Source of the DNA: a virus
Taxonomy: Duplodnaviria; Heunggongvirae; Uroviricota; Caudoviricetes
Strand: one strand, 5' to 3'
DNA: 12,317 nt
IMG/VR virus record: IMGVR_UViG_2802429246_000010
Coordinates: 1 to 12,317 of that record
The position numbers and the translations under genes were made by a program. The notes beneath the pieces were generated by a model. It was not told the DNA's origin. It saw nothing but the letters and a program-made list of their open reading frames with translations, and ran no database searches. Below are positions 1-12,317 of the stretch, piece by piece (positions within the stretch are counted from its first letter, which is position 1; the number at the start of each line of letters is the position of its first letter).

Positions 1-1632
1 ATGGTAACTCGGACAATGCAACAAAAGTATGATCGTGTTTTATCTGGCGAATCCCATCCATTCCCTGGCATATACGAGGCGGTTTCCGAACAACTCCTTT
101 TGCTCATCTTTAAGGCTCGTCAGCTATATCAGAATCCAGAATATCGCCCCTGGTTTGAAGAACAGCACAGAGTTCTCTCTGCATTACGTGCTAATACAGA
201 GCTCTTGAGAATATTTAGAGAACAAAGAAACGCGGAAGAACCAGAGCTTATTATTAAAGAATCTACATTACCCCTACTCACTAATTCTAATCTTACAGAT
301 GCGCTTAATATTATGTGCCATTTATACAATGGTTTTGATGAAGGAAATATCAGTCTGAAAACCTGGGGGGCGATGCAAGAGGTACAGACAACATCAACCT
401 TTATCAGCCCGGGACCGAGAACCTGGAAAACACCTGAACTGGCAAAGTTTGTAGGAGATGATTTATTTAATATTCTGACTGAATGTAAAGCCTGGAGTTC
501 ACCAATTCCAGCAGAAACCCGACAGGGCTATTGCCATCAGGATCTGTCTGTTGCACACTCCTGCACCTCAGAGTTACTGGCACACCTGAATCAATACCAT
601 GAAATTGATGAATCAGCAATACTTGCCAGAGTTATTGGTATGACGGTTAACGGATTCTACAAGAAAAATAATACAGACCTCCCAGAATGGCTATCCCCCT
701 TTAAAGAGGAACATAAAATATTCAGAGATTGTCTGGAGCAAAAGACCGAGGATGTAATCAGACTGAAAGAACAACTGTTGAAAACAGGACGTTCAGAATT
801 CGTGAATAATTTGTGTCGGGTCGCCAACTGGTATGAAATTAAGTCAATATACGATGAATATGTCCGTCTTTATGCCAATGAAATCATTGGTTGGTTCAAC
901 AAAACCATGGAATATTTTAAACCAACAGATTTTATCCGATATACATGGAAATTCGCAACAGTTACTCCAGGTAAAGAGACAGAAACCAAGCATACAACTG
1001 CATGGGAAAAGGATTATTGCCAGATAACTATACAACGTGATGAACTTCTGAGATTGATTCACACGAATACCCTTCAGGATGCAGTAATTTATCTTTGCCA
1101 TTGTCTGCAGAAGAAATACAAGAAATCATCCCAAAATGAGATAGAGTTTCCAGGAATAAAACCTCCGGCATCAGAGAGTGAAATTAATATAACAGATAGT
1201 TTTGAATTTTATTCTCTCCTGGAGCTCAGTAAAGATAATGAGAGACGGCTGGAAACATTTCAAAAATGGTATGAAAAAAATAAAGTTTTGTTAGAAAGTC
1301 ATAAACAAAAACGAACAGAGAAGATTGACGTTGCCGTACGACTTGTAGGGCTGAAAGCCTATGATCTGCATGAAGGGATTCCGGATAGTCCAAAACGAAA
1401 AGTTAAAGATGGCATAAATGAAGACATCAAAGCCGATACCAGTTTACGCCTGCCAAAGACAAATATAAGTGATACGTCGCTAAACCGTTATCGCCGCACT
1501 GTTAAGGAGATTATCAATAACGAAATCGACGCATTCCTGTTGGAACAGAAGAAAAAAAATAAAAGATTTCCCTACAGTGAAGATAGAGATGTGATTCGAC
1601 CTTTATGGGGAAAATGCCTGACCGGGCAGTAG
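1..1632 (+). CDS. hypothetical protein (543 aa), AT-rich accessory/cargo gene; ATG sits at position 1 so the true 5' end may lie beyond the window
   Basis: Uninterrupted 1632-nt ORF with coding-like amino-acid composition; noticeably more AT-rich than the rest of the window; followed by a hairpin terminator; no motif I can recognise by eye. Confidence 0.5.
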   Translation: MVTRTMQQKYDRVLSGESHPFPGIYEAVSEQLLLLIFKARQLYQNPEYRPWFEEQHRVLSALRANTELLRIFREQRNAEEPELIIKESTLPLLTNSNLTDALNIMCHLYNGFDEGNISLKTWGAMQEVQTTSTFISPGPRTWKTPELAKFVGDDLFNILTECKAWSSPIPAETRQGYCHQDLSVAHSCTSELLAHLNQYHEIDESAILARVIGMTVNGFYKKNNTDLPEWLSPFKEEHKIFRDCLEQKTEDVIRLKEQLLKTGRSEFVNNLCRVANWYEIKSIYDEYVRLYANEIIGWFNKTMEYFKPTDFIRYTWKFATVTPGKETETKHTTAWEKDYCQITIQRDELLRLIHTNTLQDAVIYLCHCLQKKYKKSSQNEIEFPGIKPPASESEINITDSFEFYSLLELSKDNERRLETFQKWYEKNKVLLESHKQKRTEKIDVAVRLVGLKAYDLHEGIPDSPKRKVKDGINEDIKADTSLRLPKTNISDTSLNRYRRTVKEIINNEIDAFLLEQKKKNKRFPYSEDRDVIRPLWGKCLTGQ

Positions 1633-1640
1633 ATCACTGA

Positions 1641-1676
1641 GGGGATAACAGCCCGGTTATCCCCTGTTTGTTCTGC
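1641..1676 (+). terminator. rho-independent terminator downstream of the 543-aa ORF
   Basis: 9-bp stem GGGGATAAC (1641-1649) / GTTATCCCC (1656-1664) with 6-nt loop, followed by TGTTTGTTCTGC. Confidence 0.5.
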
Positions 1677-1718
1677 TTCAGGTTGCCAGAGCTCTAGGAA
1701 CACGAGGCAATCGGCAAA

Positions 1719-2315
1719 TTATGCGGCTTTTCCATTAACAGATTCGGCCACAAGAACGACAGTGTGTTTGTTTCGCTCAGGATGTTCACTCCAGATTTCT
1801 GATTCCGGGATGCTTTCCCCGTCATAACTGATCCGTTCGCCATCAAACGGGTAATACCGTGCGGAATCAGTATCTAAAATAAACACCTTCAGATTCGTTG
1901 AACGACGCGCAATATGCTGCCAGAGAGCTTTTCCTCCTTCATATTGCTCGTTATCACTTAATAGTACAACGCCCGCTTTTGTGACTATCGTTTCATAAAC
2001 AAACGTTGCAAGACCAACATCGCGTACAGCTCCATCGACAACAATCCCTTCAATCTGAGCAACATCCTGTTCTTCCCAGAATTTCTGGACAAACACGCCT
2101 TCAAGTCGGGGACGACGCTGAAGCTCCAGAGTGGCAACAACCTTATGGCGAACATCACCATCAATAACAGAAGGTGCAGCTTCGATTACCGCAGCAAACG
2201 GAGTCTTTGGATCCCAGATGATCTGGTAAAGCACGCCCTGAATAGTTACTCCATCCAGTATCGAAAAACGACGGGCTACAGTAGCAGGGGAGTAAGACAT
2301 TGGAATTACAGCCAT
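1719..2315 (-). CDS. hypothetical protein (198 aa from ATG at 2313-2315; the track ORF extends to an upstream GTG at 2345)
   Basis: ATG at 2315 is preceded on the minus strand by AGAGGGGA about 9 nt upstream; coding-like composition; about 100 bp downstream of the integrase on the same strand; no recognisable domain. Confidence 0.5.
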   Translation of the reverse strand: MAVIPMSYSPATVARRFSILDGVTIQGVLYQIIWDPKTPFAAVIEAAPSVIDGDVRHKVVATLELQRRPRLEGVFVQKFWEEQDVAQIEGIVVDGAVRDVGLATFVYETIVTKAGVVLLSDNEQYEGGKALWQHIARRSTNLKVFILDTDSARYYPFDGERISYDGESIPESEIWSEHPERNKHTVVLVAESVNGKAA

Positions 2316-2444
2316 TTTAGAATCCCCTCTGAGTAATACAGGCACGAAAATTTACCTCAATAATTATAGTAAACAATACCAGAGCCAGGCGCATCAACAA
2401 TACTCATCAATTGTACTCAAGTCGTACAACGATCAGGAACGCCC

Positions 2445-3761
2445 TCACCTTCTACCAAACAGATTAACAACATTATTACCTGTCTGCTGTTGGTGGTTAT
2501 TAACCCGGTCCTCCCAGATCTCAAGTGCTCTGCGTTTTTCTGGCAAATAATCGTATCGATCATAATGTTTTGAACTGACATCGTTCAACGCATGATTTTG
2601 AATACGATCGCGGATTTCCTTACTGATTCCAGCTTCTCCCATTAACGTTTTACAGGTCCGACGTAAGTCACGTGCTGTAAAAATTTTAAAGTCAGGATTA
2701 CAAGCCCGGAAATACATGATAGCGCGAGCCAGACTGTCCGTACGAACCGGACGCTTACCATTAGTCGAAAGCGGGAAAATGTAAGGGCTCGATTTTTCTT
2801 TTGTTAACTCCTGCACACAAGATAATTCCTGTAATGCTGATTCAGTCAACGGTATCAAATGTTCTCGCTTATTTTTAGAGACATCCGCAGTCACCAGCAG
2901 CGTTTTTTGCTGAAAATCAACATCACACCACTGACTGGCGATCATTTCGAAGGGACGTTGCCCCCCGGTATAGATACAGAATCGGATCAAATGTTGCATC
3001 AATAATCCAACGTTGGTTGCTTCAGCAAAATGTTCCATTAGAAAACGCAACTCTTCGAGTGTCAGCCAGGTGTCACCGACTTTTTCAGCAGATGACTGTT
3101 TCGGTATCACTGATACCGGATTGGCCTCCAGCCCAAAAGTAATCCCTACACTTGTGTTCATCGGATCGTTATCAGCTTTCAGACCATAGTTAAATGCAGC
3201 CATCAGGTAAGAACGGATCCGGTTAGAGTGAACCACTGCACCGCGCTGAATGATCCCGGCCAGGATATGTTTAATCTGTCCGGAAGTCACATCTTTAGCT
3301 TTAGTCTCACGGGGGATCACTGTATAGCATTCATTTTCAAGGCGTTTCAGAACATCCTGCCATGTTCTCTTATTATCAATTTTCATTTTGTTAACATAAC
3401 CATGAATCAATGCTTCAAATGAGCCCTGTGATTGATGGAGTTGTATCCGCTGCTGTTCTGCAAGCTGTTGTCGCTCCAGTTCTGTCTGGGGATCCTTTCC
3501 TTCAATGAGCCAGGCACCATACTTTTTTGCCAGTTCATTCGCTGTAGCCAGTTTCATCTCAGGCCATATACCCAATTGAATGAATCTTTCTTTTTTCCCT
3601 TTTTCCACGTAATAGCGGAAATAGAAAATTTTGCTGCCAGAAGACTGAACTTTGATGCCAAGTCGTCCAGTGCCACGTTGAGAACTGTTGCTCCAGACAT
3701 AGAACGATGTCTTTTTTGCTTTCAATGCTCGGATAGCTGTTTCAGTTAGATTGACGGCCAT
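2445..3761 (-). CDS. int: site-specific tyrosine recombinase (phage integrase), P4-type with N-terminal arm-binding domain
   Basis: 438 aa; N-terminus (LTETAIRALK...GSKIFYFRYY...ERFIQLGIWPEMKLATA) fits the P4-integrase N-terminal domain pattern; C-terminus has the R...H..R...Y arrangement (ARDLRRT...HALND...HYDRYDY); AAGAGG RBS about 5 nt upstream of ATG at 3761; lies next to a tRNA-derived att core. Confidence 0.9.
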   Translation of the reverse strand: MAVNLTETAIRALKAKKTSFYVWSNSSQRGTGRLGIKVQSSGSKIFYFRYYVEKGKKERFIQLGIWPEMKLATANELAKKYGAWLIEGKDPQTELERQQLAEQQRIQLHQSQGSFEALIHGYVNKMKIDNKRTWQDVLKRLENECYTVIPRETKAKDVTSGQIKHILAGIIQRGAVVHSNRIRSYLMAAFNYGLKADNDPMNTSVGITFGLEANPVSVIPKQSSAEKVGDTWLTLEELRFLMEHFAEATNVGLLMQHLIRFCIYTGGQRPFEMIASQWCDVDFQQKTLLVTADVSKNKREHLIPLTESALQELSCVQELTKEKSSPYIFPLSTNGKRPVRTDSLARAIMYFRACNPDFKIFTARDLRRTCKTLMGEAGISKEIRDRIQNHALNDVSSKHYDRYDYLPEKRRALEIWEDRVNNHQQQTGNNVVNLFGRR

Positions 3762-3808
3762 AGAACCTCTTTTCTAAACCAGTAACAATCAAAATAACTC
3801 GTAAATTT

Positions 3809-3831
3809 GGGTCAGGTAATGGGTCAGGTAA
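3809..3831. promoter_or_regulatory. tandem direct repeat GGGTCAGGTAA x2 (candidate integrase arm-type or accessory-protein site) in the int upstream region
   Basis: Exact 11-bp copies at 3809-3819 and 3821-3831 separated by 1 nt, between the int start codon and the tRNA-derived core; followed by ACAATTA-type AT-rich repeats (3900-3940). Confidence 0.3.
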
Positions 3832-3957
3832 CGATCGTACAATGGAGAAAAAACGGAACCAAGCGGAAACAGAAGCAATTACATAATTACTTGATTATAA
3901 ACAATTAATAAAACAATTACGAACAAACCAAAACAATATAGAATGGACTTGCCTCAT

Positions 3958-4004
3958 GACTCATAATCGCTTGGTCGTTGGTTCAAACCCAACAGGGGCC
4001 ACCA
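3958..4004 (+). other. att core remnant: 47-nt 3' fragment of a tRNA-Ile(CAU)-like gene (anticodon loop through CCA), truncated at the 5' side
   Basis: GACTCATAATCGCTTGGTCGTTGGTTCAAACCCAACAGGGGCCACCA closely matches the 3' part of enterobacterial ileX/ileY-type tRNA as I recall it, with compensatory T-stem changes (GTTGG/CCAAC); the upstream 30 nt cannot form an acceptor or D arm, so this is not a complete tRNA. Confidence 0.65.
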
Positions 4005-4012
4005 TATCTATC

Positions 4013-4050
4013 AAGGGGTTACGTTAACAGCGTGACCCCTTCGTTTTTTC
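4013..4050 (+). terminator. rho-independent terminator immediately after the tRNA-derived core
   Basis: Stem AAGGGGT (4013-4019) / ACCCCTT (4035-4041), 15-nt loop, then CGTTTTTTC. Confidence 0.45.
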
Positions 4051-4330
4051 TAGGATACCTATAGGATACCGTGACAGAGTATAAGCAGGTATAAAAACAA
4101 CAAGTTACGCAACATCATACCTGTCATGAAACTTTAACTATCCGACATGATAGCTGGTCGATGATCACGGATAATCCGTTATGTGGATCCCCATATCGGC
4201 ATCAGACCCACCAGCGTGAAGCGTTTTTCATTTTTCGCGGGTATAAAAAATCGATGGGGCTGGCAGTCCGGAAGACGTCAGGTCACAGGGATTTGACCCG
4301 CCCCTCCCTGTGCATGAGCACAATAAGTAA

Positions 4331-4539
4331 CCGAAGGCGGAATTCCGCCCTCGGTACTCACATATGAGAAACGATATTTCTTCCACCGATACCCTTTATT
4401 TGGGTATCGCGAGTAAGCCCCAAAATCTGGGTGTTACTCTTACTACCCAAACTACGGGTAGTTTCCGTAATTTCATGGTCGAGTTGCAGATCTGCAACTC
4501 ACCCACCAGCGCAACGCTGAAAGCCAGTCAGTAAACTGG
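4331..4539. repeat. cluster of six inverted repeats/hairpins in non-coding DNA, including a perfect 20-bp palindrome at 4481-4500
   Basis: CCGAAGGCGG-AATT-CCGCCCTCGG (4331-4354); CGATACCC/GGGTATCG (4387-4409); ACTACCC/GGGTAGT (4442-4462); GAGTTGCAGATCTGCAACTC (4481-4500); CAGCG-CAA-CGCTG (4507-4519); GCCAGT/ACTGGC (4522-4539). No convincing ORF on either strand. Confidence 0.6.
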
Positions 4540-4560
4540 CTTCGGTCATTGTGCACTACG

Positions 4561-5103
4561 TTACTTGTCTTTATCCGGCTGAAACTTATCAGGCACATTT
4601 CCGGTAGTTTCCATCAGATAATCGGACAGCATTCGCGGGATGTTTTCATCAAGTTTTGTGCATGCGTTACAGGCTCTGACAACTTCTTTTTTCAGGCCAT
4701 CCAGCATGACGGGGGTCATCTGTGGGAAGCTCCTTTGCATAGTAAGCGGCAGGCTGTCCATGATTGATGAAATCTGACTCGCCAGTTTTGAAAGCGCGTA
4801 CATGCAAAACTCTGTATCAATCACGTCACCGCGATCGCGCTCGTTTTTAAGTTCCTGCGCCTCCGCCTGTGCTGTCAGTAATCTGATCCTGACTCGTAAG
4901 AGTTCATCATCATCAATCTCGCCTTTGTCGTTTGTAAGCTGGCTAATTGCATTGTTAACCCTATTGTCTATCACGCTGGCAACATCATAAAACGCCTCAC
5001 GGCCTTTACGTTCAACGGGAGTCACTCCCCACTTGTCGAATGCTGTAGCACTTACCCGGCAGCTTTGCGCCATGGTTTTTTTGTTCATCAGGTGCGATTT
5101 CAT
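4561..5103 (-). CDS. terminase small subunit, lambda Nu1-like (N-terminal winged-HTH cosB-binding type)
   Basis: 180 aa from ATG at 5103 (lambda Nu1 is 181 aa); collinear similarity to lambda Nu1 along the whole length, e.g. LTAQAEAQELKNERD..DTEFCMYALSKLASQISSIMDSLPLTMQRSFP...LDENIPRMLSDYLMETTG against lambda LTRAQADAQELKNARD..ETAFCTFVLSRIAGEIASILDGLPLSVQRRFP...LDELIPGLLSEYIEQSG; a lambda-like cos lies directly upstream. Start is ambiguous (ATG 5103 or ATG 5085). Confidence 0.8.
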   Translation of the reverse strand: MKSHLMNKKTMAQSCRVSATAFDKWGVTPVERKGREAFYDVASVIDNRVNNAISQLTNDKGEIDDDELLRVRIRLLTAQAEAQELKNERDRGDVIDTEFCMYALSKLASQISSIMDSLPLTMQRSFPQMTPVMLDGLKKEVVRACNACTKLDENIPRMLSDYLMETTGNVPDKFQPDKDK

Positions 5104-5109
5104 CAATAT

Positions 5110-5300
5110 CCCAACTTGGTCAAGGTTTCAGGTTGGTGTGTTGGTGTTATCTTTCCCTTTTTATTCATGGAGATAGAGCAAACAACAAAACCACCACCAC
5201 CACCCTGAAAAAGCTCATAAATAGCGAAAAACCGCGAGGTCGCCGCCCCGTAGCCTACCGGATCGCCGGAAAGGACCCGCCAGCCAGAACGGGCCCTAAT
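5110..5300 (-). other. lambda-type cohesive-end site (cos); cosN 12-nt overhang sequence at 5237-5248, diverged cosB-side region 5110-5214
   Basis: Minus strand reads GGGCGGCGACCTCGCGGTTTTTCGCTATTTATGA (plus 5215-5248), matching the lambda left end GGGCGGCGACCTCGCGGGTTTTCGCTATTTATGA at 33 of 34 positions including the full cohesive-end 12-mer; sequence then diverges from lambda before the Nu1-like start. Confidence 0.8.
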
Positions 5301-5304
5301 TTCA

Positions 5305-5688
5305 TCAACCAATCAACTTATAGCGACCATCCCGTGCATTGCGGCGTACACGCTCAATCTTGAGGCATAGCGCCGCATCTGGCTTTTTTGGGACAGGTAC
5401 GCGGCAATATTCAGAAGCTCGAGGAATATTGTTTATCCAGTCGATCACTTCGCTTAAATACCAGGCCTTACGCCCTTCCGTAACCTGTACGCGTTCGGGG
5501 AACTCTCCGCGAGCCTCAAGGTTTAGCAATGTGCGACGGCTAAGGGTAGTAAGTTCCATCACCTGATTCATATCAACAAGGCGTTCACTTAAACGCATTT
5601 TGTCAGCAATAGCCTTTAATTCCTCTACTGCTGGATCCGGATACATCATTTCGGCAATTGGCTTAAGGTCATTGTAATGATTCTGCAT
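5305..5688 (-). CDS. AlpA/Vis-family HTH DNA-binding protein (127 aa, with an N-terminal extension of about 30 aa)
   Basis: Core RLVDMNQVMELTTLSRRTLLNLEARGEFPERVQVTEGRKAWYLSEVIDWINN fits the AlpA pattern; AGGGGGA RBS 5-6 nt upstream of ATG at 5688; stop lies about 57 bp from cosN. Confidence 0.7.
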   Translation of the reverse strand: MQNHYNDLKPIAEMMYPDPAVEELKAIADKMRLSERLVDMNQVMELTTLSRRTLLNLEARGEFPERVQVTEGRKAWYLSEVIDWINNIPRASEYCRVPVPKKPDAALCLKIERVRRNARDGRYKLIG

Positions 5689-5699
5689 TGTATCCCCCT

Positions 5700-6041
5700 T
5701 TACACACGAGCCAGCGGCTGAACAGAAATACCTGAGCCAACAAACGCGGCAACCTTTGCCGACAGTTCTTTTACAGACTCAGGCCAGTTCAGAGCATCAA
5801 CATTTAAAACACCTGTCTTATAAACCTGTGCCTGTGTTTTTTTCGCTGTGTCGATTTGTACAGCGGAAACATAAACCGCTTTGCCTGCGCTCGTTCCATC
5901 CCATACCACTAGCGCACCAGTTGCATCTTCCTGCATCAGTGGCGTAAACGCAGGTATTACCCCTTTATTGGCTGAAAATATCCCCAGCGTAGTAACCAGT
6001 GCTTCAGTGCCAGACATGAGTTCAGTGTAATGAGTAGCCAT
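5700..6041 (-). CDS. head decoration protein, lambda gpD-like
   Basis: 113 aa; TPLMQEDATGALVVWDGTSAGKAVYVSAVQIDTAKKTQAQVYKTGVLNVDALNWPE...AFVGSGISV aligns with lambda gpD [55 protein letters not shown]...AFAGTAISIV; AAGGGGGAG RBS overlaps the stop of the upstream capsid gene. Confidence 0.8.
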   Translation of the reverse strand: MATHYTELMSGTEALVTTLGIFSANKGVIPAFTPLMQEDATGALVVWDGTSAGKAVYVSAVQIDTAKKTQAQVYKTGVLNVDALNWPESVKELSAKVAAFVGSGISVQPLARV

Positions 6042-6050
6042 TGCTCCCCC

Positions 6051-7097
6051 TTAGCCAATGCGAACGGTAACAAAACGATTGATGCGGGCCGGTATTGGCT
6101 GTGGTGCTGAATGTGTCTGCACATATTCAATAGCCGGATCACCAGGCACAATATAGTTTTTCGGTGCAAGTTCGGCTTTAGTCAGCCCCATCCGAATTAG
6201 CTCCGGATCCTGAATACCGCCATAAGCGACAATCCCCTGAAGAGCCGTATTGCCAAGCACCATCAAATCAGGATCAAGGAAATATTTTTCAGTTCCGTCC
6301 TCGTCGGTATAACGCCCGCTGTAAACAACAATCGCAACATCGCCCATATACCCTTTAAAACTCACCGAATCACCAAGGTCTTTAAGGGCCGTTTCCAGTT
6401 CGGAATTAGAACCACGACGGGTATCCAGAGCCTCTTTTATCGCTCTGAATGAACGGTATTTCTTCCATACATTACCGCCCATAATGATGATATTAGTGAC
6501 GCCCTCACTAAATTCTGCGTAGCTCTCAATATCATCATTTGGATCAAAAGTTTCTTTATCCTTACCTGACCACTCAGCACCGCCAGACTGCGTGATAATA
6601 TTTTGTGGTTTTATATTCCAGTCCAGTTCATAACGTTCAATACCATCGCCCTCAATGATATTTTTCCCCGTTGTGATTGCCTGAACAGCAAGCCATTCAA
6701 TACGTGCACGTATAGCTTTAGCCTGATTTACAATCGCCTGTTTAACTTTAATATTACGCGCCCCAAAAGCATTGTATTGTTCAGGTGATACACCAGCAGG
6801 GCGCACAGCTAACTTATTTGGATCAATGCTGCTTTTCGGTTTCATATAGCCAGGGCGAATTGTTTTTGATTCGTATCCCTCATCTCGTGAAACTTTACTG
6901 CCCACCATAGGAGAGCAAAACGCCGCGATCGGGATATTTGGATCGTCGATCGTATCAAGAATAATGTCTCTCGATTCAAACATTACCGAGCGAGTGAAAA
7001 ACAAACTGGTAAACAACGCATTTAATTTTTTTTGCACATCTTCAGCATTAGCCACCTGCACAAGCTGTGTAGGCGAATATAAATCAACCATACTCAT
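6051..7097 (-). CDS. major capsid protein, lambda gpE-like (start at ATG 7097 or 7091; track ORF extends to 7178)
   Basis: Strong collinear similarity to lambda gpE, e.g. ITQSGGAEWSGKDKETFDPNDDIESYA...YRSFRAIKEALDTRRGSNSELETALKDLGDSVSFKGYMGDVAIVVYSG...MVLGNT...GDPA against lambda ITQSGGTEWSKRDKSTYDPTDDIEAYA...FRSFKAVKEKLDTRRGSNSELETAVKDLGKAVSYKGMYGDVAIVVYSG...MVLGNT...GDPA; N-terminus MSMVDLYSPTQL parallels lambda MSMYTTAQLL; AAAGAGG RBS just upstream. Confidence 0.85.
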   Translation of the reverse strand: MSMVDLYSPTQLVQVANAEDVQKKLNALFTSLFFTRSVMFESRDIILDTIDDPNIPIAAFCSPMVGSKVSRDEGYESKTIRPGYMKPKSSIDPNKLAVRPAGVSPEQYNAFGARNIKVKQAIVNQAKAIRARIEWLAVQAITTGKNIIEGDGIERYELDWNIKPQNIITQSGGAEWSGKDKETFDPNDDIESYAEFSEGVTNIIIMGGNVWKKYRSFRAIKEALDTRRGSNSELETALKDLGDSVSFKGYMGDVAIVVYSGRYTDEDGTEKYFLDPDLMVLGNTALQGIVAYGGIQDPELIRMGLTKAELAPKNYIVPGDPAIEYVQTHSAPQPIPARINRFVTVRIG

Positions 7098-7262
7098 CCT
7101 CTTTACATTCATTACAAATAATTGTGAATATATTCTATTACCGATGTCTGCTATGCGAATACATGCAACCAAGTGCAATGTTGTATAAAATATGCCGTGA
7201 CAACTTCAGTGCTGATAATTCGTGTTAATGTATTTACTTCCTTTGGTCGGGATTTATGTAGC

Positions 7263-7302
7263 ATGCCGGAAAATCTATTTTTTTCCGGCATCTTTTTGTT
7301 TG
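7263..7302 (+). terminator. strong hairpin plus T-tract (terminator-like, plus-strand orientation) upstream of the capsid gene
   Basis: 11-bp stem ATGCCGGAAAA (7263-7273) / TTTTCCGGCAT (7281-7291), 7-nt loop, then CTTTTTGTTTG. Orientation is antisense to the surrounding minus-strand genes, so its function is uncertain. Confidence 0.35.
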
Positions 7303-7375
7303 CAGAATTTAAAACGGTATATTATCGCCGTACGGATCATCATTCCCCGACTGTTGTTTTGCCCTGTTCAGTGCG

Positions 7376-7732
7376 TCAGTGGCCTGCCCCTGCTGGCCTT
7401 TTTTTGCCGCCCGGTCGCGCCGTTCGCGCACTGATTACGCTGTCTGCGATAACCTGCCAGCCCTGCCGCGTTTCGCCGTTCTGGCCTGTCCACTGGCTTA
7501 CCTGCATGTTACCCGCCACGCTCACCAGTTCGCCTTTGTGGTGTTTTGCCAGTGCGTCGGCCTGTCTGCCAAACGCCAGGACGGATAACCACATCGTCGC
7601 CGTTCCGTCATCTGCCTGGCTGCACGGAAGGGGGACCGCCATACTAGCCATCGCCATTTGTGTACCCTTGCTGGTGGTCTTTAACTGCGGGTCAGCCACC
7701 AGCCGTCCGTAAGCCGCTATCTGTGCTGTCAT
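7376..7732 (-). CDS. single-stranded-DNA-binding-like OB-fold protein (118 aa) with a basic C-terminal tail
   Basis: Pattern YGRLVADPQL...TMWLSVLAFGRQADALAKHHKGELVSVAGNMQVSQWTGQNGETRQGWQVIADSV parallels E. coli SSB (VGNLGQDPEV...[52 protein letters not shown]); GGAGAG RBS; ATGA start/stop overlap with the upstream gene. Confidence 0.5.
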   Translation of the reverse strand: MTAQIAAYGRLVADPQLKTTSKGTQMAMASMAVPLPCSQADDGTATMWLSVLAFGRQADALAKHHKGELVSVAGNMQVSQWTGQNGETRQGWQVIADSVISARTARPGGKKRPAGAGH

Positions 7733-7971
7733 GCTGTCTGCTCTCCGGTTTTAACGTTGATGGTTGTTACCTGTTCCGCTTCGGCAATCTCCCGTTCTGT
7801 CATCGTGGCAAAGTTTGCAGCTGCCGTTGTCATGAATGCGCTAATCAGTTCGGGATGTGCTTTCGCATATCCTTCCCCGGCGTTGCGGTCGATGATTTTT
7901 ATCGCCACTCTCAGCCAGTGCTCTGTAAGGTCAATAGCGCGGTAGTGTGGTTGTTTGCGGTTTGCCTTCAT
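7729..7971 (-). CDS. hypothetical protein (80 aa)
   Basis: ORF whose stop overlaps the start of the SSB-like gene (ATGA); coding-like composition; weak RBS; first gene after the iteron origin. Confidence 0.5.
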   Translation of the reverse strand: MKANRKQPHYRAIDLTEHWLRVAIKIIDRNAGEGYAKAHPELISAFMTTAAANFATMTEREIAEAEQVTTINVKTGEQTA

Positions 7972-8011
7972 AGTTCAGATCTCAATTTTTCGTATATATA
8001 TACAAAACAGT

Positions 8012-8334
8012 GCGGGTTATGCGGGTTAGCGGGTTAGCGGGTTATCTTCGCTTGCTAAGTATTTTTTATTCATTAATATCAATACATTACAAAATTAACT
8101 GTTTACTGTTTAGCCGTGGCGTAACCCGCAAAATGCTCAAAATAACCCGCAAACGGGGTTTTTTCTGCGGGTTACGCGTGGCTGTTTGCTGTCACTTCCT
8201 GTTATTCATCTGCGGGTTATAATCGCACTTTTGTGGGTTATAACTGCCGTTTTGCGGGTTACGTGCGGGTTATTGATTTCCTTTTTATTCATGCAGTTAA
8301 TGCACTTATACACAGAGTAACCCACATAACCCGC
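8012..8334. repeat. iteron-type replication origin: about 13 copies of GCGGGTTA (both orientations) flanking an AT-rich unwinding stretch
   Basis: Four tandem copies at 8012-8044; reverse copies TAACCCGC at 8122-8129, 8143-8150, 8327-8334; forward copies at 8167-8174, 8212-8219, 8254-8261, 8265-8272; variants GTGGGTTA (8233-8240) and TAACCCAC (8318-8325); AT-rich segment 8050-8110; located immediately downstream of the replication gene. Confidence 0.75.
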
Positions 8335-8357
8335 AACTTTTCACCTCACACAGGGGG

Positions 8358-10481
8358 TTAATCTTCTGCCTCAGGCTGGAACATCAGCACGTAAAAAACA
8401 TGCTGCTTCCCCCCAATTTTGCCGAGAGCCTTTTTCTTGTAACGGCGATCGTTACCCGCTTCCAGCATTCCGGCAGCACTCAACGCGCGGGCAAAGTGGG
8501 ACGGGTTAAATCCCTGTGCGATCTCCCCCTCAAACACATGAGGAAACGTGTAAAAACGGAACTCATCATCTTCATTTCTGATACTCCCCTTTCTGTATCC
8601 GGCAAGGTCTTTAATCGGTAAATCACGTTCATCACTGTTTGGGTAAGGAAGGTATCGACTGAACCCGAACGACGACAAAAACGCCTCAGCCTGTTCAACC
8701 ATCTGTTTAAATTCCCTGTTACCCGTGCCGAACTCCTTCACCCAGGCATTAAAGTTATGCTGTATTGCGTCCCGGCATTCCTGCGCGGCCCAGCCAGTTA
8801 CATGACCGGAAAGCACAAGCGCGGCCTCCAGTATGGCGAAACGCTCACCCACGCGGTGGACCTGCTCGCCGTAGCTCTCCGGTATCAGGTTGCGCCACCG
8901 TTCGCGGCATTCCCTTACCGTATCCTTTGCCTCCTGCTGGTGGCCTGCCAGCCATTTAACCCACTCACGACCCGCTGCCCCGTGATTTTCTGTCCAGGCA
9001 TCCTTTAACGCGTCTGCGTGCGCCTTTCCGGTGCTGTATTCGTGAAAGTGCGTGGCTTTTTCCATCGGAACGTTAAGCAGGCGGACAAGCTGCCCCGCTT
9101 TGACTTTTATCCCCTCCGTTTTGAGGAATGTCTCAACGTCCATTTCTCCGGTGCTGATTGCCACCGTGCGCCAGTGTTTTATCTCCCGGTTGCCGCCGTC
9201 CTTCGCCCCCTGTAATTTCCCGGAACCGTTAAACAACGTATAGGCTGACGTGGACACCTCCCGCGCGTTTCCGGCCTGGCCTATTTCATCCAGGGGTAAC
9301 AGCCCGTCGTTGTGCGCCTCTGCCTCGTTAGCGATACCTAACGCTGTGCCGTACCAGGTCAGCCGTTGTGCGTCCGGCTCTCCCCATAAACTTGATGCGA
9401 TGTTCTGCGTGGTGGTTTTCCCTGCCGATGACTGTTCGAAAAGATGTACCCCGAAGCCGTCAGCACCAACAAGGCCAATCAAAGGTGCTGCCAGTGACGT
9501 GGCAACACCCAGCATCATGGACGGATTGCCACCAGCCAGCCGCGCCACGCAGTCGCGCCAGCCCTCCGACGTACCCGCAACCGAATAGCCATTAACAGTG
9601 GCACTTTTTCCGGTAAACAGGATCGGTTTTTCAGAATCACCAATGATTGAGCCGTCCGGCATGATATACGCGCCAAAATGCCAGCCCGTTGTTGTGCTTA
9701 GCTGCCATTCCTCATGGCTTCCGCTTAACTGCATCCAGTCAGCCAGGATAGCCCTGTATTTGCCGTTTGTTGTCACGTTCAGCCCGTGATCTTTAAGCAA
9801 CCGCCAGCCGTCACGGTCGCCAATGCCACCACACGGGATCGCCATTGTGATGACTTCATGGTTTGCTAATTTTTTCCAGCGCATCACGCGGTAATGCTCT
9901 TTACCGATCGTCCCTGTTCCCAGTAGTTCAAGCGGAGAACATAACCACGTCTCAGGCCGGATAATTTCGCCTGACTGCTTATCCACTTTGGGCGTTACCC
10001 AGAAAACACCATCGACGCGACTTTCAACGCGGGGCTTTAATTCATCATCCTGATAGCATGGCTCTTTTTTCTTTACAGGCAGTTCAACTACCTTTTTCTT
10101 TTCCGCCTGCTCTGCCCGTTCACGTTCCAGATATTCACGCCAGTTCTCCCGTTTCTGGCTGTGCATTCCTTCAGGGTAATAATCAGCATCCCTGACACCT
10201 GCCGCTGCCAGTTTCTGCCCGATGGTATTAACAAGCCCCGGACGCAATAACCCCGCCTGATAGAGACGCACGCGATAGCGTCCGTCCGGTACGATTTGCA
10301 GGTTGTCCAGTTCGGCAAGTTGTTGCTCTCCAAGCCAGACAGGAGGCACGTTATCGCCAGCCAGTCGCCCGTCCTGTTCCTGCCACTGCTTCGCATGTGC
10401 CCACGCATCACTACCCGCAAAAATGATGACTTCCGTCATTTTGTCACGTGGCTGGTGTTTTAAATTTGGCGCTTTTTTCAT
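8358..10481 (-). CDS. replication initiator, primase/helicase-like P-loop NTPase (707 aa from ATG at 10481)
   Basis: Large ORF with Walker A-like SSAGKTT and Walker B-like LLPLDEIG motifs; GGAGAGAG RBS upstream of ATG at 10481; start overlaps the stop of the upstream gene (ATGA); cognate iterons immediately downstream. Family assignment is by context and motifs, not by confirmed homology. Confidence 0.8.
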   Translation of the reverse strand: MKKAPNLKHQPRDKMTEVIIFAGSDAWAHAKQWQEQDGRLAGDNVPPVWLGEQQLAELDNLQIVPDGRYRVRLYQAGLLRPGLVNTIGQKLAAAGVRDADYYPEGMHSQKRENWREYLERERAEQAEKKKVVELPVKKKEPCYQDDELKPRVESRVDGVFWVTPKVDKQSGEIIRPETWLCSPLELLGTGTIGKEHYRVMRWKKLANHEVITMAIPCGGIGDRDGWRLLKDHGLNVTTNGKYRAILADWMQLSGSHEEWQLSTTTGWHFGAYIMPDGSIIGDSEKPILFTGKSATVNGYSVAGTSEGWRDCVARLAGGNPSMMLGVATSLAAPLIGLVGADGFGVHLFEQSSAGKTTTQNIASSLWGEPDAQRLTWYGTALGIANEAEAHNDGLLPLDEIGQAGNAREVSTSAYTLFNGSGKLQGAKDGGNREIKHWRTVAISTGEMDVETFLKTEGIKVKAGQLVRLLNVPMEKATHFHEYSTGKAHADALKDAWTENHGAAGREWVKWLAGHQQEAKDTVRECRERWRNLIPESYGEQVHRVGERFAILEAALVLSGHVTGWAAQECRDAIQHNFNAWVKEFGTGNREFKQMVEQAEAFLSSFGFSRYLPYPNSDERDLPIKDLAGYRKGSIRNEDDEFRFYTFPHVFEGEIAQGFNPSHFARALSAAGMLEAGNDRRYKKKALGKIGGKQHVFYVLMFQPEAED

Positions 10482-10777
10482 TTCTGCTCTCTCCACGCGG
10501 CAATCATGTTTTTCAGTTCCTGTAGTTTTTTATCCACATTCACACGTGACACATGGTTATTTCTGGAAAGCGGGATTTCCCGCCTGAATCTGCTAATAAA
10601 GATCTCCACGTTCAGCGAACTATGAAATGAATAGCCATCACGAATAAAATACACACGGTCAAACATTATCGATTTTACTGTTACTCTGTTGCCGTTCTTA
10701 TCCCGATAAATAGCGCCGGGGATAATTTTGGGATGTGCATAACCGCTGGCAGTCAAGCCAGATAAATACGTTCTCAT
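10478..10777 (-). CDS. hypothetical protein (99 aa), translationally coupled to the replication gene
   Basis: ATG at 10777 with GGGGA upstream; stop overlaps the primase start codon. Confidence 0.55.
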   Translation of the reverse strand: MRTYLSGLTASGYAHPKIIPGAIYRDKNGNRVTVKSIMFDRVYFIRDGYSFHSSLNVEIFISRFRREIPLSRNNHVSRVNVDKKLQELKNMIAAWREQK

Positions 10778-10783
10778 GATTAT

Positions 10784-11104
10784 TTATCCCCGATTTGAAT
10801 CAGTATTCGCTTTCTTTATGGCATTTAATGCATCTGTGGCATTTTCAATGGTGCACCGTAACGAAATATCAAAATGTCCAAGCATTGCCAGTAACAAACC
10901 GATATTACCCATATCAATGCGCATGGCCTTTTCGTCATAGTCCTCATTTTCTGACGCATGCCACATCAGGCTACCAATTGACGCAACGGCCATTGATATA
11001 TTGTCAGTCGCCCCATCCGCAGCGGAATAAACCTTTTTAGCAATATCATGCTCACAGTTAAAATGCGGATTAATCAGGTACTGGTAATTTGACATATCAG
11101 GCAT
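10784..11104 (-). CDS. hypothetical protein (106 aa)
   Basis: ATG at 11104 with AGGGGG RBS 7 nt upstream; coding-like composition; start overlaps the end of the upstream small gene. Confidence 0.6.
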   Translation of the reverse strand: MPDMSNYQYLINPHFNCEHDIAKKVYSAADGATDNISMAVASIGSLMWHASENEDYDEKAMRIDMGNIGLLLAMLGHFDISLRCTIENATDALNAIKKANTDSNRG

Positions 11105-11300
11105 GGCACACCCCCTGACGAATACGGGCGGCGAATACCATCACGCAGCCAGCCGGGGATTGCTGGCGTGCTTCCTGTTCGCTGGTGGCCACGATGGTAA
11201 TCACACGCGGTTTTGCGGCGCTCAGGGCGATAAAACGCCAGGCGAATTTATTCAGGTTGTGCGAATCCCGCCCTTGCGGGTGTATGGTATGATTTCTCAT
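11097..11300 (-). CDS. small protein (67 aa), possibly Icd-like (P4-type host cell division inhibitor family); first gene of the leftward operon
   Basis: ATG at 11300 with GAGG 6 nt upstream; MRNHTIHPQGRDSHNLNKFAWRFIALSAAKPRVITIVATSEQEARQQSPAGCVMVFAARIRQGVCHA; the FAWRF...EAR...FAAR pattern recalls Icd-like proteins (from memory, unverified). It is the only coding-like stretch of the otherwise implausible 334-aa track ORF. Confidence 0.45.
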   Translation of the reverse strand: MRNHTIHPQGRDSHNLNKFAWRFIALSAAKPRVITIVATSEQEARQQSPAGCVMVFAARIRQGVCHA

Positions 11301-11337
11301 AGCTACCTCGATACTCTCGTTATCGTTGGTGGTTAGA

Positions 11338-11383
11338 AGCCCTGCGAGTGGTAACGACACTTGCGGGGCTTTGTTTTTTGTTG
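11338..11383 (+). terminator. hairpin plus T-tract (terminator-like, plus-strand orientation) in the divergent regulatory region
   Basis: 11-bp stem AGCCCTGCGAG (11338-11348) / CTTGCGGGGCT (11360-11370) with two G-U pairs, 11-nt loop, followed by TTGTTTTTTGTTG. Confidence 0.3.
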
Positions 11384-11396
11384 CACTTACTGTTAA

Positions 11397-11440
11397 TGTA
11401 CGTACGTAATATTGATGATAATAGGAGTTACGTACGTACA
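11397..11440. promoter_or_regulatory. twin operator: two copies of the self-complementary 10-mer TACGTACGTA (13-bp inverted repeats TGTACGTACGTAA / TTACGTACGTACA) 30 bp apart
   Basis: Copies at 11399-11408 and 11429-11438; the second lies between an AGGAG (11423-11427) and the ATG of the RHH gene; a TAATAT -10-like hexamer sits between the two copies. Confidence 0.5.
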
Positions 11441-11631
11441 TGTCAACATTAAAGCGGGATAAATCACCACGCGGCGAGGGATGGTCGCCGACATTCCAGA
11501 TACGAATTAGCAAAGAACTACGCCAGCAAGTAAACGAGGCAGCAACCGCCGATGGCCTAACCCTCGGCAATTGGTTTAAAGAATTAGCTCGTGCCGAACT
11601 AAAGCGACGTGGCATTGAACCTAAAGGCTGA
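11440..11631 (+). CDS. ribbon-helix-helix (CopG/Arc-like) DNA-binding regulator (63 aa)
   Basis: FQIRISKELRQQVNEAATADGLTLGNWFKELARAEL fits a beta-strand/helix/helix RHH pattern; the gene begins directly after the palindromic operators and is divergent from the replication operon. Confidence 0.55.
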   Translation: MSTLKRDKSPRGEGWSPTFQIRISKELRQQVNEAATADGLTLGNWFKELARAELKRRGIEPKG

Positions 11632-11634
11632 TGT

Positions 11635-11760
11635 ATGACTGAAAAGCAGACCGATAACAAACTTTCTCTACCAGAGAATAAACCAGCAGGCTTCTTACCA
11701 AGAAAAATCCTTGATGAGATCAAACGCCGCCAGCGGCGCAAGGCCAAAGAGCTGGAGTAA
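11635..11760 (+). CDS. small basic ORF (41 aa), not in the supplied track
   Basis: ATG 4 nt after the RHH stop with AAGG upstream; MTEKQTDNKLSLPENKPAGFLPRKILDEIKRRQRRKAKELE; plausible but too short to judge by composition. Confidence 0.3.
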   Translation: MTEKQTDNKLSLPENKPAGFLPRKILDEIKRRQRRKAKELE

Positions 11761-11817
11761 CCATCACCAGCGCCGTGGTGCGGTGAACTGTGGCGCACAG
11801 GGTTACAGGTATCTACG

Positions 11818-11997
11818 ATGACTGACAAATCATTAAAGAAATTATCCTCATCCAAGAAAAAACAACGCAAAAATGCGGTAAACGAACATGAACCGGAGAG
11901 ATTCGCACCATGTGCGTTTATCCTTGAGAAGTACCTTAAAGAGTATTCTAGGAAAATACGCTCATTGCAGGCATGGCAGCGAATCGAGCCAGACTGA
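11818..11997 (+). CDS. small basic ORF (59 aa), not in the supplied track
   Basis: ATG at 11818; MTDKSLKKLSSSKKKQRKNAVNEHEPERFAPCAFILEKYLKEYSRKIRSLQAWQRIEPD; N-terminus resembles the 41-aa ORF (MT-D/E-K); weak RBS. Confidence 0.25.
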   Translation: MTDKSLKKLSSSKKKQRKNAVNEHEPERFAPCAFILEKYLKEYSRKIRSLQAWQRIEPD

Positions 11998-12107
11998 TAG
12001 CATTGCCCACCAGCCAACAACCTGGTATTCTGGATATGCTCAAGTTTAGTGTTATGCCACTGGCGGCCCTCTGCGGTCGCCTTTGTTTTATGTGCCATCA
12101 CTCCCCC

Positions 12108-12317
12108 TTACACCGTCTGCGTTCTGCGAGTGGATGCAAGATAAGCATCGAGATCAGTGCGCATATACAGCACTTTGCGCCCCAGCTTATGGAAAGGGAT
12201 TTTTACCTTGCCAGTACAGGCCCAGTTCGCCAGCGTTTGATTGTTAACGCCAAGGTAGGCAGCAGCTTCAGCACGTGTAAGGCGGTCAGTTGATAAATCA
12301 GATTTCTTTAAATTCAT
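12108..12317 (-). CDS. excisionase/AlpA-family HTH DNA-binding protein (69 aa; start codon at the window edge, so it may extend upstream)
   Basis: LTRAEAAAYLGVNNQTLANW...GKVKIPFHKLGRKVLYMRTDLDAYLA matches the excisionase-type HTH pattern; position and orientation suggest an int-alpA-type pair with an integrase beyond the window edge. Confidence 0.7.
   Translation of the reverse strand: MNLKKSDLSTDRLTRAEAAAYLGVNNQTLANWACTGKVKIPFHKLGRKVLYMRTDLDAYLASTRRTQTV

Follow-up and report, generated by a model that had tools for sequence, protein, structure and literature searches.

We analyzed a non-coding block at positions 4050-4560 of a 12,317-nucleotide stretch of viral DNA (positions 1 to 12,317 of IMG/VR record IMGVR_UViG_2802429246_000010; hereafter, the window). 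The window is the junction of two islands that are inserted in tandem at tRNA-Ile (ileX) of Escherichia coli, and the block occupies the non-coding stretch from the attachment (att) core to the stop codon of the small terminase gene (terS) of the right-hand island. Within the block, 83 base pairs (bp) match the cos sites of phage SfI and its relatives. A second cos site, of the lambda type, precedes terS. Judging from these homologies, the right-hand island is a phage satellite that carries the packaging sites of two unrelated helper families. The block itself is best read, with some reservation, as the att-proximal end of this ~11-kb satellite, which is of the phage-inducible chromosomal island (PICI) type and sits at tRNA-Ile (ileX), and as three juxtaposed parts. 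The features that bear on packaging are:

4226-4308, minus strand (phage orientation): cos region of the SfI/SfII/SfV/SfIV/ST64B/phiP27 type (HK97-like, HNH-dependent), by homology
4256-4265, minus strand: predicted cosN with a 10-nt cohesive end, GGGGCTGGCA, which is TGCCAGCCCC in phage orientation, by alignment to phiP27 and SfI
4561-5106, minus strand: gene for the small terminase (TerS) of Nu1 type, 47% identical to N15 gp1 and 37% identical to lambda Nu1
5203-5280, minus strand: second cos site, of lambda type (cosQ-cosN segment), upstream of the Nu1-like terS

A cos site of the SfI type

The segment at 4226-4308 is 94-96% identical to SfII, ST64B, 118970_sal3, and several E. coli phages (E of about 1e-27 to 1e-29). 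SfI, SfV, and SfIV match it in part, at the ends of their records, with about 96% identity; phiP27 is 82% identical, and there the match runs across the annotated cos-site. In these phages, the matching segment is the intergenic stretch that separates the HNH endonuclease gene from the genes for the small and large terminase (terS-terL). The homology spans 30 bp on the phage terS side of the cohesive end and 43 bp on the HNH side. Altogether, the 83 bp make up the middle two thirds of this region and bring no coding sequence of the phages with them; the outer ~40 bp are replaced on each side, by a Chi site on one side and by a block of hairpins on the other. An earlier note on this DNA, made from the sequence alone, had described the block and its hairpins but overlooked this homology.

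The cohesive end can be placed by alignment. The 10-bp "cos-site" annotation of phiP27 (CGCCCGCCCC) aligns to 4256-4265, and the base aligned to position 4256 is exactly where the SfI record ends. The SfI cohesive end, 5'-TGCCCGCCCC-3', was mapped by sequencing the ends of virion DNA (PMC3636060). The corresponding TGCCAGCCCC of the window matches it at 9 of 10 bases. We are nearly certain, on sequence grounds, that 4226-4308 is a homologue of the cos site of SfI-type phages, and we think that it probably functions as one.

The segment is also conserved among satellites. Of 69 satellite loci from IMG/VR, 21 have an SfI-type cos; its orientation never changes, its distance from the hairpin anchor is always exactly 152 bp, and it is 93-98% identical. 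These 21 loci span three morphogenesis modules: Nu1-type TerS with a lambda E-like capsid; DUF1441 with a protease-capsid fusion; and the capsid-forming type, with TerL, TerS, and HNH. Among 5426 complete E. coli genomes, the cos and the hairpin block are contiguous in 349. Finally, a 10,790-bp circular E. coli "plasmid," pZ1323HEC0475-3 (NZ_CP148328.1; locus L156), is an excised PICI: it encodes int, alpA, an Icd-like protein, a primase, a protease-capsid fusion, DUF1441, and a phrog_1561 protein, followed by the hairpin block, an SfI-type cos, and attP. The SfI-type cos is the only recognizable cos in this circle, which has no lambda cosN.

Several observations weigh against a functional site. 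First, the cohesive end differs at one position (G to T) from every phage that we examined. Second, the island has no HNH, no large terminase (TerL), and no matching TerS, and the site does not lie between HNH and terS-terL. Third, the closest sequenced host, strain A36, does not contain an SfI-type prophage. The missing genes are what would be expected of a pirated site, as our claim is that the island carries a copy of a helper's cos, not a phage cos locus. Because the TerS of the island is unrelated to the TerS of these phages (we compared it with that of SfII), the site would be usable only by the terminase of the helper, as in SaPIbov5. As for the mismatch, the T variant (GGGGCTGGCA) is the majority allele among the satellites; other satellites carry the exact phage 10-mer (GGGGCGGGCA, as in SfI), and GGAGCGGGCA is found as well.

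We also considered whether the 83 bp might be a non-functional relic of recombination with an SfI-type prophage, so that the island would be packaged only via the lambda-type cos and its own TerS. The mismatch falls at a position that is invariant in phages, the island encodes a Nu1-type TerS whose gene is preceded by a canonical lambda-type cos, and the Chi-containing direct repeats that flank the segment are consistent with recombinational acquisition. However, the relic would have to consist of just the central part of the intergenic cos region, without flanking phage coding sequence. It would also have to be kept at high identity and in a single orientation across three packaging modules, including elements with no other recognizable cos, and next to the hairpin block in hundreds of complete genomes. 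Also, that the T variant is the commonest in satellites argues for a maintained allele rather than decay. We therefore consider a relic to be quite improbable, and we retain the reading of 4226-4308 as a cos site taken from a helper.

Five other capsid-forming PICIs (L019, L030, L040, L059, and L067) also have an SfI-type cos beside the hairpin block. We rejected the idea that the block is the main cos of the capsid-forming PICIs, since those have a cos-like sequence at the canonical position between HNH and terS. For example, in the capsid-forming PICI of E. coli strain C3 (L011), positions 8690-8800, between HNH/hyp and terS, are G-rich and contain CCCGCC and then TTTTTAT..CGGGAA. This is probably that element's own cos, which is built like the SfI type but is divergent. 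In the searchable literature, we came across no report of E. coli PICIs with a cos of the SfI/phiP27 type.

A lambda-type cos and proposed packaging by two kinds of helper

The second cos site, on the minus strand, contains an exact lambda cosN 12-mer (GGGCGGCGACCT) at 5237-5248, 131 bp upstream of terS. This is the sole exact match in the window. The cosQ-cosN segment is about 90% identical to lambda-like phages, and the cosB region beyond it diverges. Thus, the cosN 12-mer, the flanking cosQ, and the position upstream of a Nu1-type terS that mark a lambda-type cos are all present; this position recurs in nearly all of the loci with Nu1-type TerS. We also searched 4004-4560 for a lambda-type cosN and rejected this possibility, as there was no match with three or fewer mismatches. 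A 69-amino-acid (aa) open reading frame (ORF) at 5103-5312 overlaps the lambda-type cos. It belongs to the phrog_11159 family and is unannotated in RefSeq; conservation of the cos may have produced it as an artefact.

The two cos sites are co-oriented, and if lambda and the gene order of the phages are a guide, both would direct packaging leftwards in window coordinates. We infer the cleavage, the identity of the helpers, and the direction of packaging from homology, and the scheme is as follows. Upon induction, the island would excise and replicate. The TerS-TerL-HNH terminase of an SfI/SfV/ST64B/phiP27-type helper would recognize 4226-4308 and make staggered nicks at 4256-4265. These would leave 10-nt cohesive ends, with packaging proceeding leftward across attP. 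Alternatively, a TerL of lambda/N15 type, recruited by the island's Nu1-like TerS, would cut at 5237-5248.

Chi sites, repeats, and a deletion

Two Chi sites flank the cos and the hairpins:

4208-4215, minus strand: Chi (GCTGGTGG on the minus strand) within an 11-bp direct repeat, ACCCACCAGCG, by sequence match
4503-4510, minus strand: Chi within the second copy of ACCCACCAGCG (4501-4511), by sequence match

On the plus strand, both sites, at 4208 and 4503, read CCACCAGC. The copies of the 11-bp repeat, at 4206-4216 and 4501-4511, flank the segment with the cos and the hairpins, and the Chi beside the cos (the site at 4208-4215) is also kept in the circular PICI. Across the island (L001 19900-31000, the locus in strain A36), there are 10 Chi octamers in ~11 kb, 7 of them in one orientation; roughly 0.3 would be expected by chance.

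Chi must lie on the strand that is 3'-ended where RecBCD enters. By this rule, the Chi at 4503-4510 appears to be correctly oriented to stop RecBCD that enters at the cut at 4256-4265 and moves right. After a cos cut, this site, 240 bp inside the free end, would halt RecBCD.

The repeats also coincide with a deletion. Relative to otherwise identical islands at ileX, the window lacks ~510 bp that carry the 94-aa phrog_1561 gene (window 4502-4517 versus L006 13560-14115). The deleted stretch lies between two Chi-containing repeats, and a 16-bp sequence that includes Chi is repeated at its two end points.

The satellite and its surroundings

The nearest complete genome is that of E. coli strain A36, with 99.3-100% identity. 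The junction of the two islands is marked by:

2445-3761, minus strand: tyrosine integrase gene of the left island, which closes that island
3958-4004, plus strand: att core, a 47-nt 3' piece of tRNA-Ile (ileX) that ends with CCA at 4004, at the junction of the two islands

In many other E. coli genomes, an intact, annotated tRNA-Ile directly precedes what lies to the right of 3958 here, and therefore the right-hand element begins at 3958. ARAGORN did not find a complete tRNA anywhere in the window. The fragment at 3958-4004 and the distal copy (L001 30866-30909) differ at five positions, including a compensatory change in the T-stem (GTTGG/CCAAC here and GCTGG/CCAGC in the distal copy). The fragment is a distinct, still foldable version of the 3' end of the tRNA.

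The right-hand element is ~11 kb and extends from the att core at tRNA-Ile to an integrase gene of its own, which adjoins nfeF and lies outside the window. Its genes are all on the minus strand and encode the Nu1-type TerS, an AlpA-like protein, a lambda D-like decoration protein, a lambda E-like major capsid protein, SSB, a DUF927 primase, DUF4222, and an Icd-like protein. PICIs are marked by a size of about 10-15 kb, genes for integrase, AlpA, and primase or replication, genes for packaging or capsid interference, the lack of a lysis or tail module, and flanking att repeats. The element has this size, the int, AlpA, and primase genes, packaging and capsid genes, and flanking att, and it has no lysis or tail module; a related element exists as the 10.79-kb circle. 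By these signs, it is a PICI-type phage satellite that is related to EcCICFT073. We looked for homology to Rpp, or a relative with a solved structure, for the Nu1-like TerS, the AlpA-like protein, and the phrog_1561 protein; only AlpA matched a structure (8c3t).

Some neighboring sequences are of separate interest. The two cargo genes of the left island, at 1-1632 (plus strand) and 1719-2345 (minus strand), have no match in Pfam. The 543-aa product has no match in PHROG either, and the 208-aa product matches phrog_7522, a family with no assigned function. Both genes sit beside int, which is a frequent position for accessory or defense genes. At the other end of the window, an ORF of 334 aa is open at 11097-12101 (minus strand), and RefSeq annotates just a 67-aa Icd-like protein at its 3' end. 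By analogy with P4-like elements, where the immunity region occupies such sequence, the upstream part may be non-coding and regulatory.

Probable arm sites for the integrase

Between the att core and the first Chi, the features are:

4009-4049, plus strand: match to the integration host factor (IHF) consensus at 4009-4021, followed by a hairpin (4013-4041) and a TTTTTT T-run
4051-4070, plus strand: P' arm-type integrase sites, two copies of TAGGATACC with 11-bp spacing, by repeat search and match to a doublet beside int

The hairpin and T-run at 4013-4049 are the terminator of the tRNA, supplied by the island. IHF-consensus matches lie on either side of the core, at 3884-3896 and 4009-4021.

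The earlier note had proposed that the whole block might be a P' arm, bound by integrase and IHF. This can be kept for 4051-4070, where the direct repeat that it listed is present (4051-4059 and 4062-4070), and not for the rest. Upstream of the island's int in A36 (L001 30705-30757), there is a doublet, AGGATACC-TAT-AGGATACC-GT (AGGATACCTATAGGATACCGT), along with an inverted GGTATCC; they precede the attR core by 110-160 bp. As the doublet is found at both ends of the island, the circle that forms on excision has a copy of it to either side of the core. Arm-type sites are classically laid out in this way, with one short repeat shared by the two arms, and the repeat here is present on both arms and is distinct from the core. 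The island's integrase contains an arm-binding domain (PF13356, Arm-DNA-bind_3, E = 2.5e-13). A different PICI, the 10.79-kb circle, is arranged likewise around a repeat of its own, AACTACACC, of which each arm has two copies. We consider it quite likely, from the repeats and the domain, that 4051-4070 contains arm-type sites for the island's tyrosine integrase. The two sites would be bound by the N-terminal arm domain of Int and, with the doublet beside int, would form the attP intasome.

The earlier note also pointed to the GATACC motif that the arm repeats share with a hairpin farther right (h3, below). We found nothing to link them beyond this 6-mer, which, as far as can be told, is a coincidence. 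Upstream of the left island's integrase gene (2445-3761), a direct repeat, GGGTCAGGTAA, occurs twice in 3810-3833; these copies are probably that integrase's own arm-type sites.

A conserved module of hairpins

The rest of the block, from 4309, is made of hairpins:

4309-4355, minus strand: hairpins h1 (4309-4322) and h2 (4330-4355), by inverted-repeat scan and fold
4383-4505, no strand assigned: 123-bp core with four hairpins, h3 (4387-4409), h4 (4411-4439), h5 (4442-4462), and h6 (4481-4500)
4521-4542, minus strand: hairpin h7, directly after the terS stop codon and contiguous with terS in related islands

The structures that the earlier note listed are all where it placed them. The hairpin CGATACCC/GGGTATCG has its arms at 4387-4394 and 4402-4409, and the perfect 20-bp palindrome GAGTTGCAGATCTGCAACTC is at 4481-4500; with the other inverted repeats (4309-4322, 4330-4355, 4411-4439, 4442-4462, and 4521-4542), there are seven hairpins in all. 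Its description of a 500-bp hairpin-dense block is apt for about 4309-4545. To the left, 4042-4225 shows no unusual degree of structure (z = -0.86). We compared predicted folds with those of 200 dinucleotide shuffles. The minus strand of 4309-4560 has a fold of -117.8 kcal/mol, versus -70.9 +/- 4.6 in the shuffles (z = -10.3), and the plus strand has z = -9.6; for either strand, none of the 200 shuffles was equal.

The core, 4383-4505, moves as an independent unit, as seen in the mosaic structure among E. coli genomes. It is present in 664 of the 5426 complete genomes (~12%), at 755 places and up to six per genome. All of the 755 copies are at least 90% identical, and none of them is annotated. 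Across 69 IMG/VR loci and about 65 metagenome loci, the core lies 40-520 bp downstream of a gene for a 93-94-aa phrog_1561 protein, wherever the flank is readable. It is at the 3' end of the late operon in at least four satellite lineages (EcCICFT073-like, Nu1-TerS, DUF1441, capsid-forming, and helper-embedded PICIs), and it follows the last late gene in nearly all of the loci with a readable flank. In the circular PICI, it comes after the last late gene, on the same strand, and before attP-int. In four loci (L019, L030, L043, and L059), the block is present twice, about 434 bp apart. We did not find the block in phages at the level of blastn, and we found no paper on its sequences.

The block is more conserved than the coding sequence beside it: its mean identity is 96%, versus 88% nucleotide identity for the adjacent gene, although the estimate for the block is inflated in that the loci were gathered by exact matches within it. 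Among Nu1-TerS islands whose terS genes are ~82% identical, the block is still ~94% identical. Across 41 distinct variants, 96.8% of cells pair, and most stem positions are invariant. Double changes were found in three pairs (9 cells), as compared with 0-1 pairs (0-2 cells) in slid controls. The double-changed pairs are 4387/4409 (CG to TA, via CA), 4391/4405 (AT to CG), and 4477/4503. This is modest evidence for base pairing. We found few divergent copies, and so covariation is thin, with three pairs. In particular, stem-only pattern scans of IMG/VR and of metagenomes gave only copies of ~92% identity or higher and three chance matches, and the single locus obtained from genome contigs with the phrog_1561 protein as the query has no copy of the block.

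The earlier note had asked how stems and sequence compare across related islands. The palindromes are kept, and the loops and spacers are kept equally well. It had also suggested a covariance-model search. No Rfam family matched the block: with Rfam 15, there was nothing at the gathering score in the entire window, and the best hit in 4000-4600 had E = 0.28 with a 22-nt model, including a rescan with lax filters.

What the module might do

We tentatively favor a role at the RNA level, as a terminator, 3'-end stabilizer, or insulator in the minus-strand transcript. Four observations point this way: the extreme fold, the position after the last late gene, a terminator-like h2, and the three double-changed pairs. 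Hairpin h2 has an 11-bp GC-rich stem and a weak tail (UACUUAUUGU), and in a permissive scan, it was the only terminator-like hairpin on the minus strand. When integrated, the module would prevent late transcripts from extending antisense into the tRNA; in the circle, it would shield int from transcription that comes through cos and attP. The structured RNA that the earlier note suggested for the block is thus possible for 4309-4545, given its stability, its place at the 3' end of an operon, and the three compensatory pairs; the Rfam search does not speak for it.

Other observations fit a terminator or stabilizer poorly. Only h2 has anything like a U-tract, and h3 to h7 have none. The loops and spacers are as constant as the stems, and the loop of h5 is invariant even when the scan pattern leaves it free. 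This constancy weighs against a plain terminator or stabilizer because such an element would not need it. Variants that are not Watson-Crick pairs (21 A.C, 14 G.T, and 12 mismatches) do not clearly favor either strand. And one divergent copy, from the plasmid collection (79% identity), has lost h4 and has a weakened h5.

The module might instead act as double-stranded DNA that offers a dimeric protein a series of binding sites; the protein could be, for instance, the phrog_1561 product, an accessory factor of the terminase, or a factor in replication. In that case, the inverted repeats (T/G)(A/C)CCC-N7-GGGT(A/G) centered at 4398, 4425, and 4452 would be operators rather than hairpins. These three repeats share a CCC-N7-GGG core and are exactly 27 bp apart. 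The near-invariance of the loops and spacers fits this idea, as does the divergent copy, which keeps the sequence better than the structure. In addition, the block is nearly always beside the phrog_1561 gene, and the C-terminal helix of the encoded protein is basic and conserved. However, the compensatory double changes in h3 (CG to TA and AT to CG) are predicted by pairing and not by independent half-sites, the 27-bp period may simply reflect three adjacent hairpins of similar size, and the window retains the block despite the deletion of the phrog_1561 gene. We consider an array of operators to be unlikely.

Another idea is that the module is a functional non-coding RNA or the target of an RNA-binding protein: either boxB-like hairpins that are bound by an arginine-rich helix of the phrog_1561 protein, or a processed stable RNA that acts on the expression of the helper or the satellite. 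The phrog_1561 protein (93-94 aa; L010 12589-12870 and homologues) accompanies the module in every type of satellite. It forms 959 clusters, all "hypothetical" and all from Enterobacteriaceae, and has an invariant basic C-terminal motif, YRRR..RRES.K.TYQWKKPERLRR. By eye, its conserved motif YRRRSQQRRESAKNTYQWKKPERLRR, with an invariant tryptophan, looks like the arginine-rich motif of lambda N, and the CCC-(A-rich 7-nt loop)-GGG hairpins loosely recall boxB. The extreme stability of the fold, the compensatory pairs, and the conservation of the block above that of the adjacent gene would also suit an RNA. But BLASTP gave no alignment between the phrog_1561 protein and lambda N, and the AlphaFold model of the protein is poor (predicted local distance difference test score of 60), which did not justify a fold search. 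Furthermore, no Rfam family matched, we did not detect a promoter for the module itself, and the phrog_1561 gene is absent from the window. This makes an RNA with a function of its own rather improbable.

Could the conservation reflect a small protein on the plus strand? The candidate ORF is at 4364-4534 and encodes 56 aa here and more elsewhere. One plus-strand frame is free of stops across the 123-bp block in all 32 of 32 variants, with open stretches of 49-230 codons in related loci. But variable sites number 10, 6, and 9 at codon positions 1, 2, and 3, so that 9 of 25 are at the third position and there is no excess there. The N and C termini are wholly different between types of satellite, the ORF runs antisense into the neighboring gene, and there is a variant with a 1-nt deletion (a frameshift). 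Also, the ORF has no match in PHROG or Pfam, and RefSeq never annotates it. A coding role is very unlikely, and the earlier note's view that the block has no credible ORF holds: the ORFs there are 41-68 aa long, and the open plus-strand frame shows no third-position bias.

Last, an oriT-like or partition-like protein-binding locus, which the earlier note had also proposed, can be dismissed almost entirely: dense inverted repeats are typical of such sites, but the island has no relaxase, coupling protein, or ParA/ParB-type gene, blastn of 72,556 plasmids gave no match to a transfer region and just three matches at all (none mobilizable, and one of them the excised PICI), and the module is restricted to phage satellites.

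We give a small chance to a bolder combination, in which both of two things would be true: the satellite would be a true dual-cos parasite of lambda-type and HK97/SfI-type terminases, and the 123-bp module would be an undescribed cis element with a sequence-specific role. Such an element would be common to all of the major satellite lineages of E. coli (EcCICFT073-like, capsid-forming, and helper-embedded PICIs and DUF1441-type islands) and might serve, for instance, as the RNA or DNA partner of the phrog_1561 protein in late transcription, packaging, or helper exploitation.

Comparison with known systems

From what is related of SaPIbov5 and the other cos-type pathogenicity islands of Staphylococcus aureus (Quiles-Puchalt et al. 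2014, cited in PMC6092414), these are satellites that carry the cos of their helper. As described there, they share with this island a copy of a helper's cos and the use of the HNH-dependent TerS-TerL of an HK97-like cos phage, a terminase that the satellite itself does not encode. Relative to that description, the host and the sequences are different, and this island has a second, lambda-type cos and a Nu1-like TerS of its own; also, we infer the function here.

EcCICFT073 is the prototype of the cos PICIs of E. coli and encodes homologues of capsid and decoration proteins (PMC6092414, PMC6739421). Like this island, it has an integrase, AlpA, a primase, a lambda E-like capsid, a decoration protein, a lambda-type cosQ/cosN with a divergent cosB, and two cos sites. 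Two EcCICFT073-like loci (L016 and L020) also carry the 123-bp module. However, both cos sites of EcCICFT073 are of the lambda type, it has no TerS, and its Rpp retargets the TerS of the helper (PMC6092414, PMC6739421). HK97, which has a different TerS, was reported to be insensitive to Rpp. This island instead has a full Nu1-type TerS, and its second cos comes from another family of phages, with a 10-nt overhang and HNH dependence. And unlike the cos of SfI, SfV, SfII, SfIV, ST64B, and phiP27, the island's copy is not flanked by HNH and terS genes.

P4 is another satellite with the cos of its helper. Shared features include an integrase of the P4 family, arm-type repeats on both att arms, and an Icd-like gene. 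However, the island has no psu, sid, or delta genes, and its cos sites are of other types than P4's, which is the P2 cos. The earlier note had also drawn an analogy to the RNA-based immunity of P4. The module is not at the immunity locus, and there was no Rfam match, including to the model for phage c4/CI-type RNA.

Finally, the module resembles repetitive extragenic palindromic (REP) sequences and bacterial interspersed mosaic elements (BIMEs), 3'-UTR stabilizers, and multi-hairpin terminators in having stable hairpins in tandem at the 3' end of an operon, most of them without a U-tract. In contrast to REP/BIME-type elements, it is restricted to satellites, has four different hairpins in a fixed order, has conserved loops and spacers, and lacks the REP consensus.

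Implications

Nothing here overturns the current understanding of these satellites. The cos part of our results extends a known strategy, a satellite that carries the cos of its helper, to two unrelated types of cos in one element. E. coli PICIs have been tied experimentally to helpers of the lambda/phi80 type, and the capsid-forming PICIs to their own packaging machinery. If the SfI-type cos is used, then islands in hundreds of genomes would hedge between two unrelated terminase systems, and the additional helpers would be serotype-converting Shigella phages, Salmonella ST64B, and the Shiga toxin (Stx) phage phiP27. The range of helpers decides how far the cargo of satellites spreads, including virulence and anti-phage genes.

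The hairpin module is widespread, unannotated, and conserved, and it is possibly new as an element. It is among the more widespread unannotated non-coding elements in E. coli, and it could be used in annotation as a sequence marker for the ends of satellites. Since it is shared by families with different packaging modules, its role would probably reveal a step that is common to the biology of these satellites.

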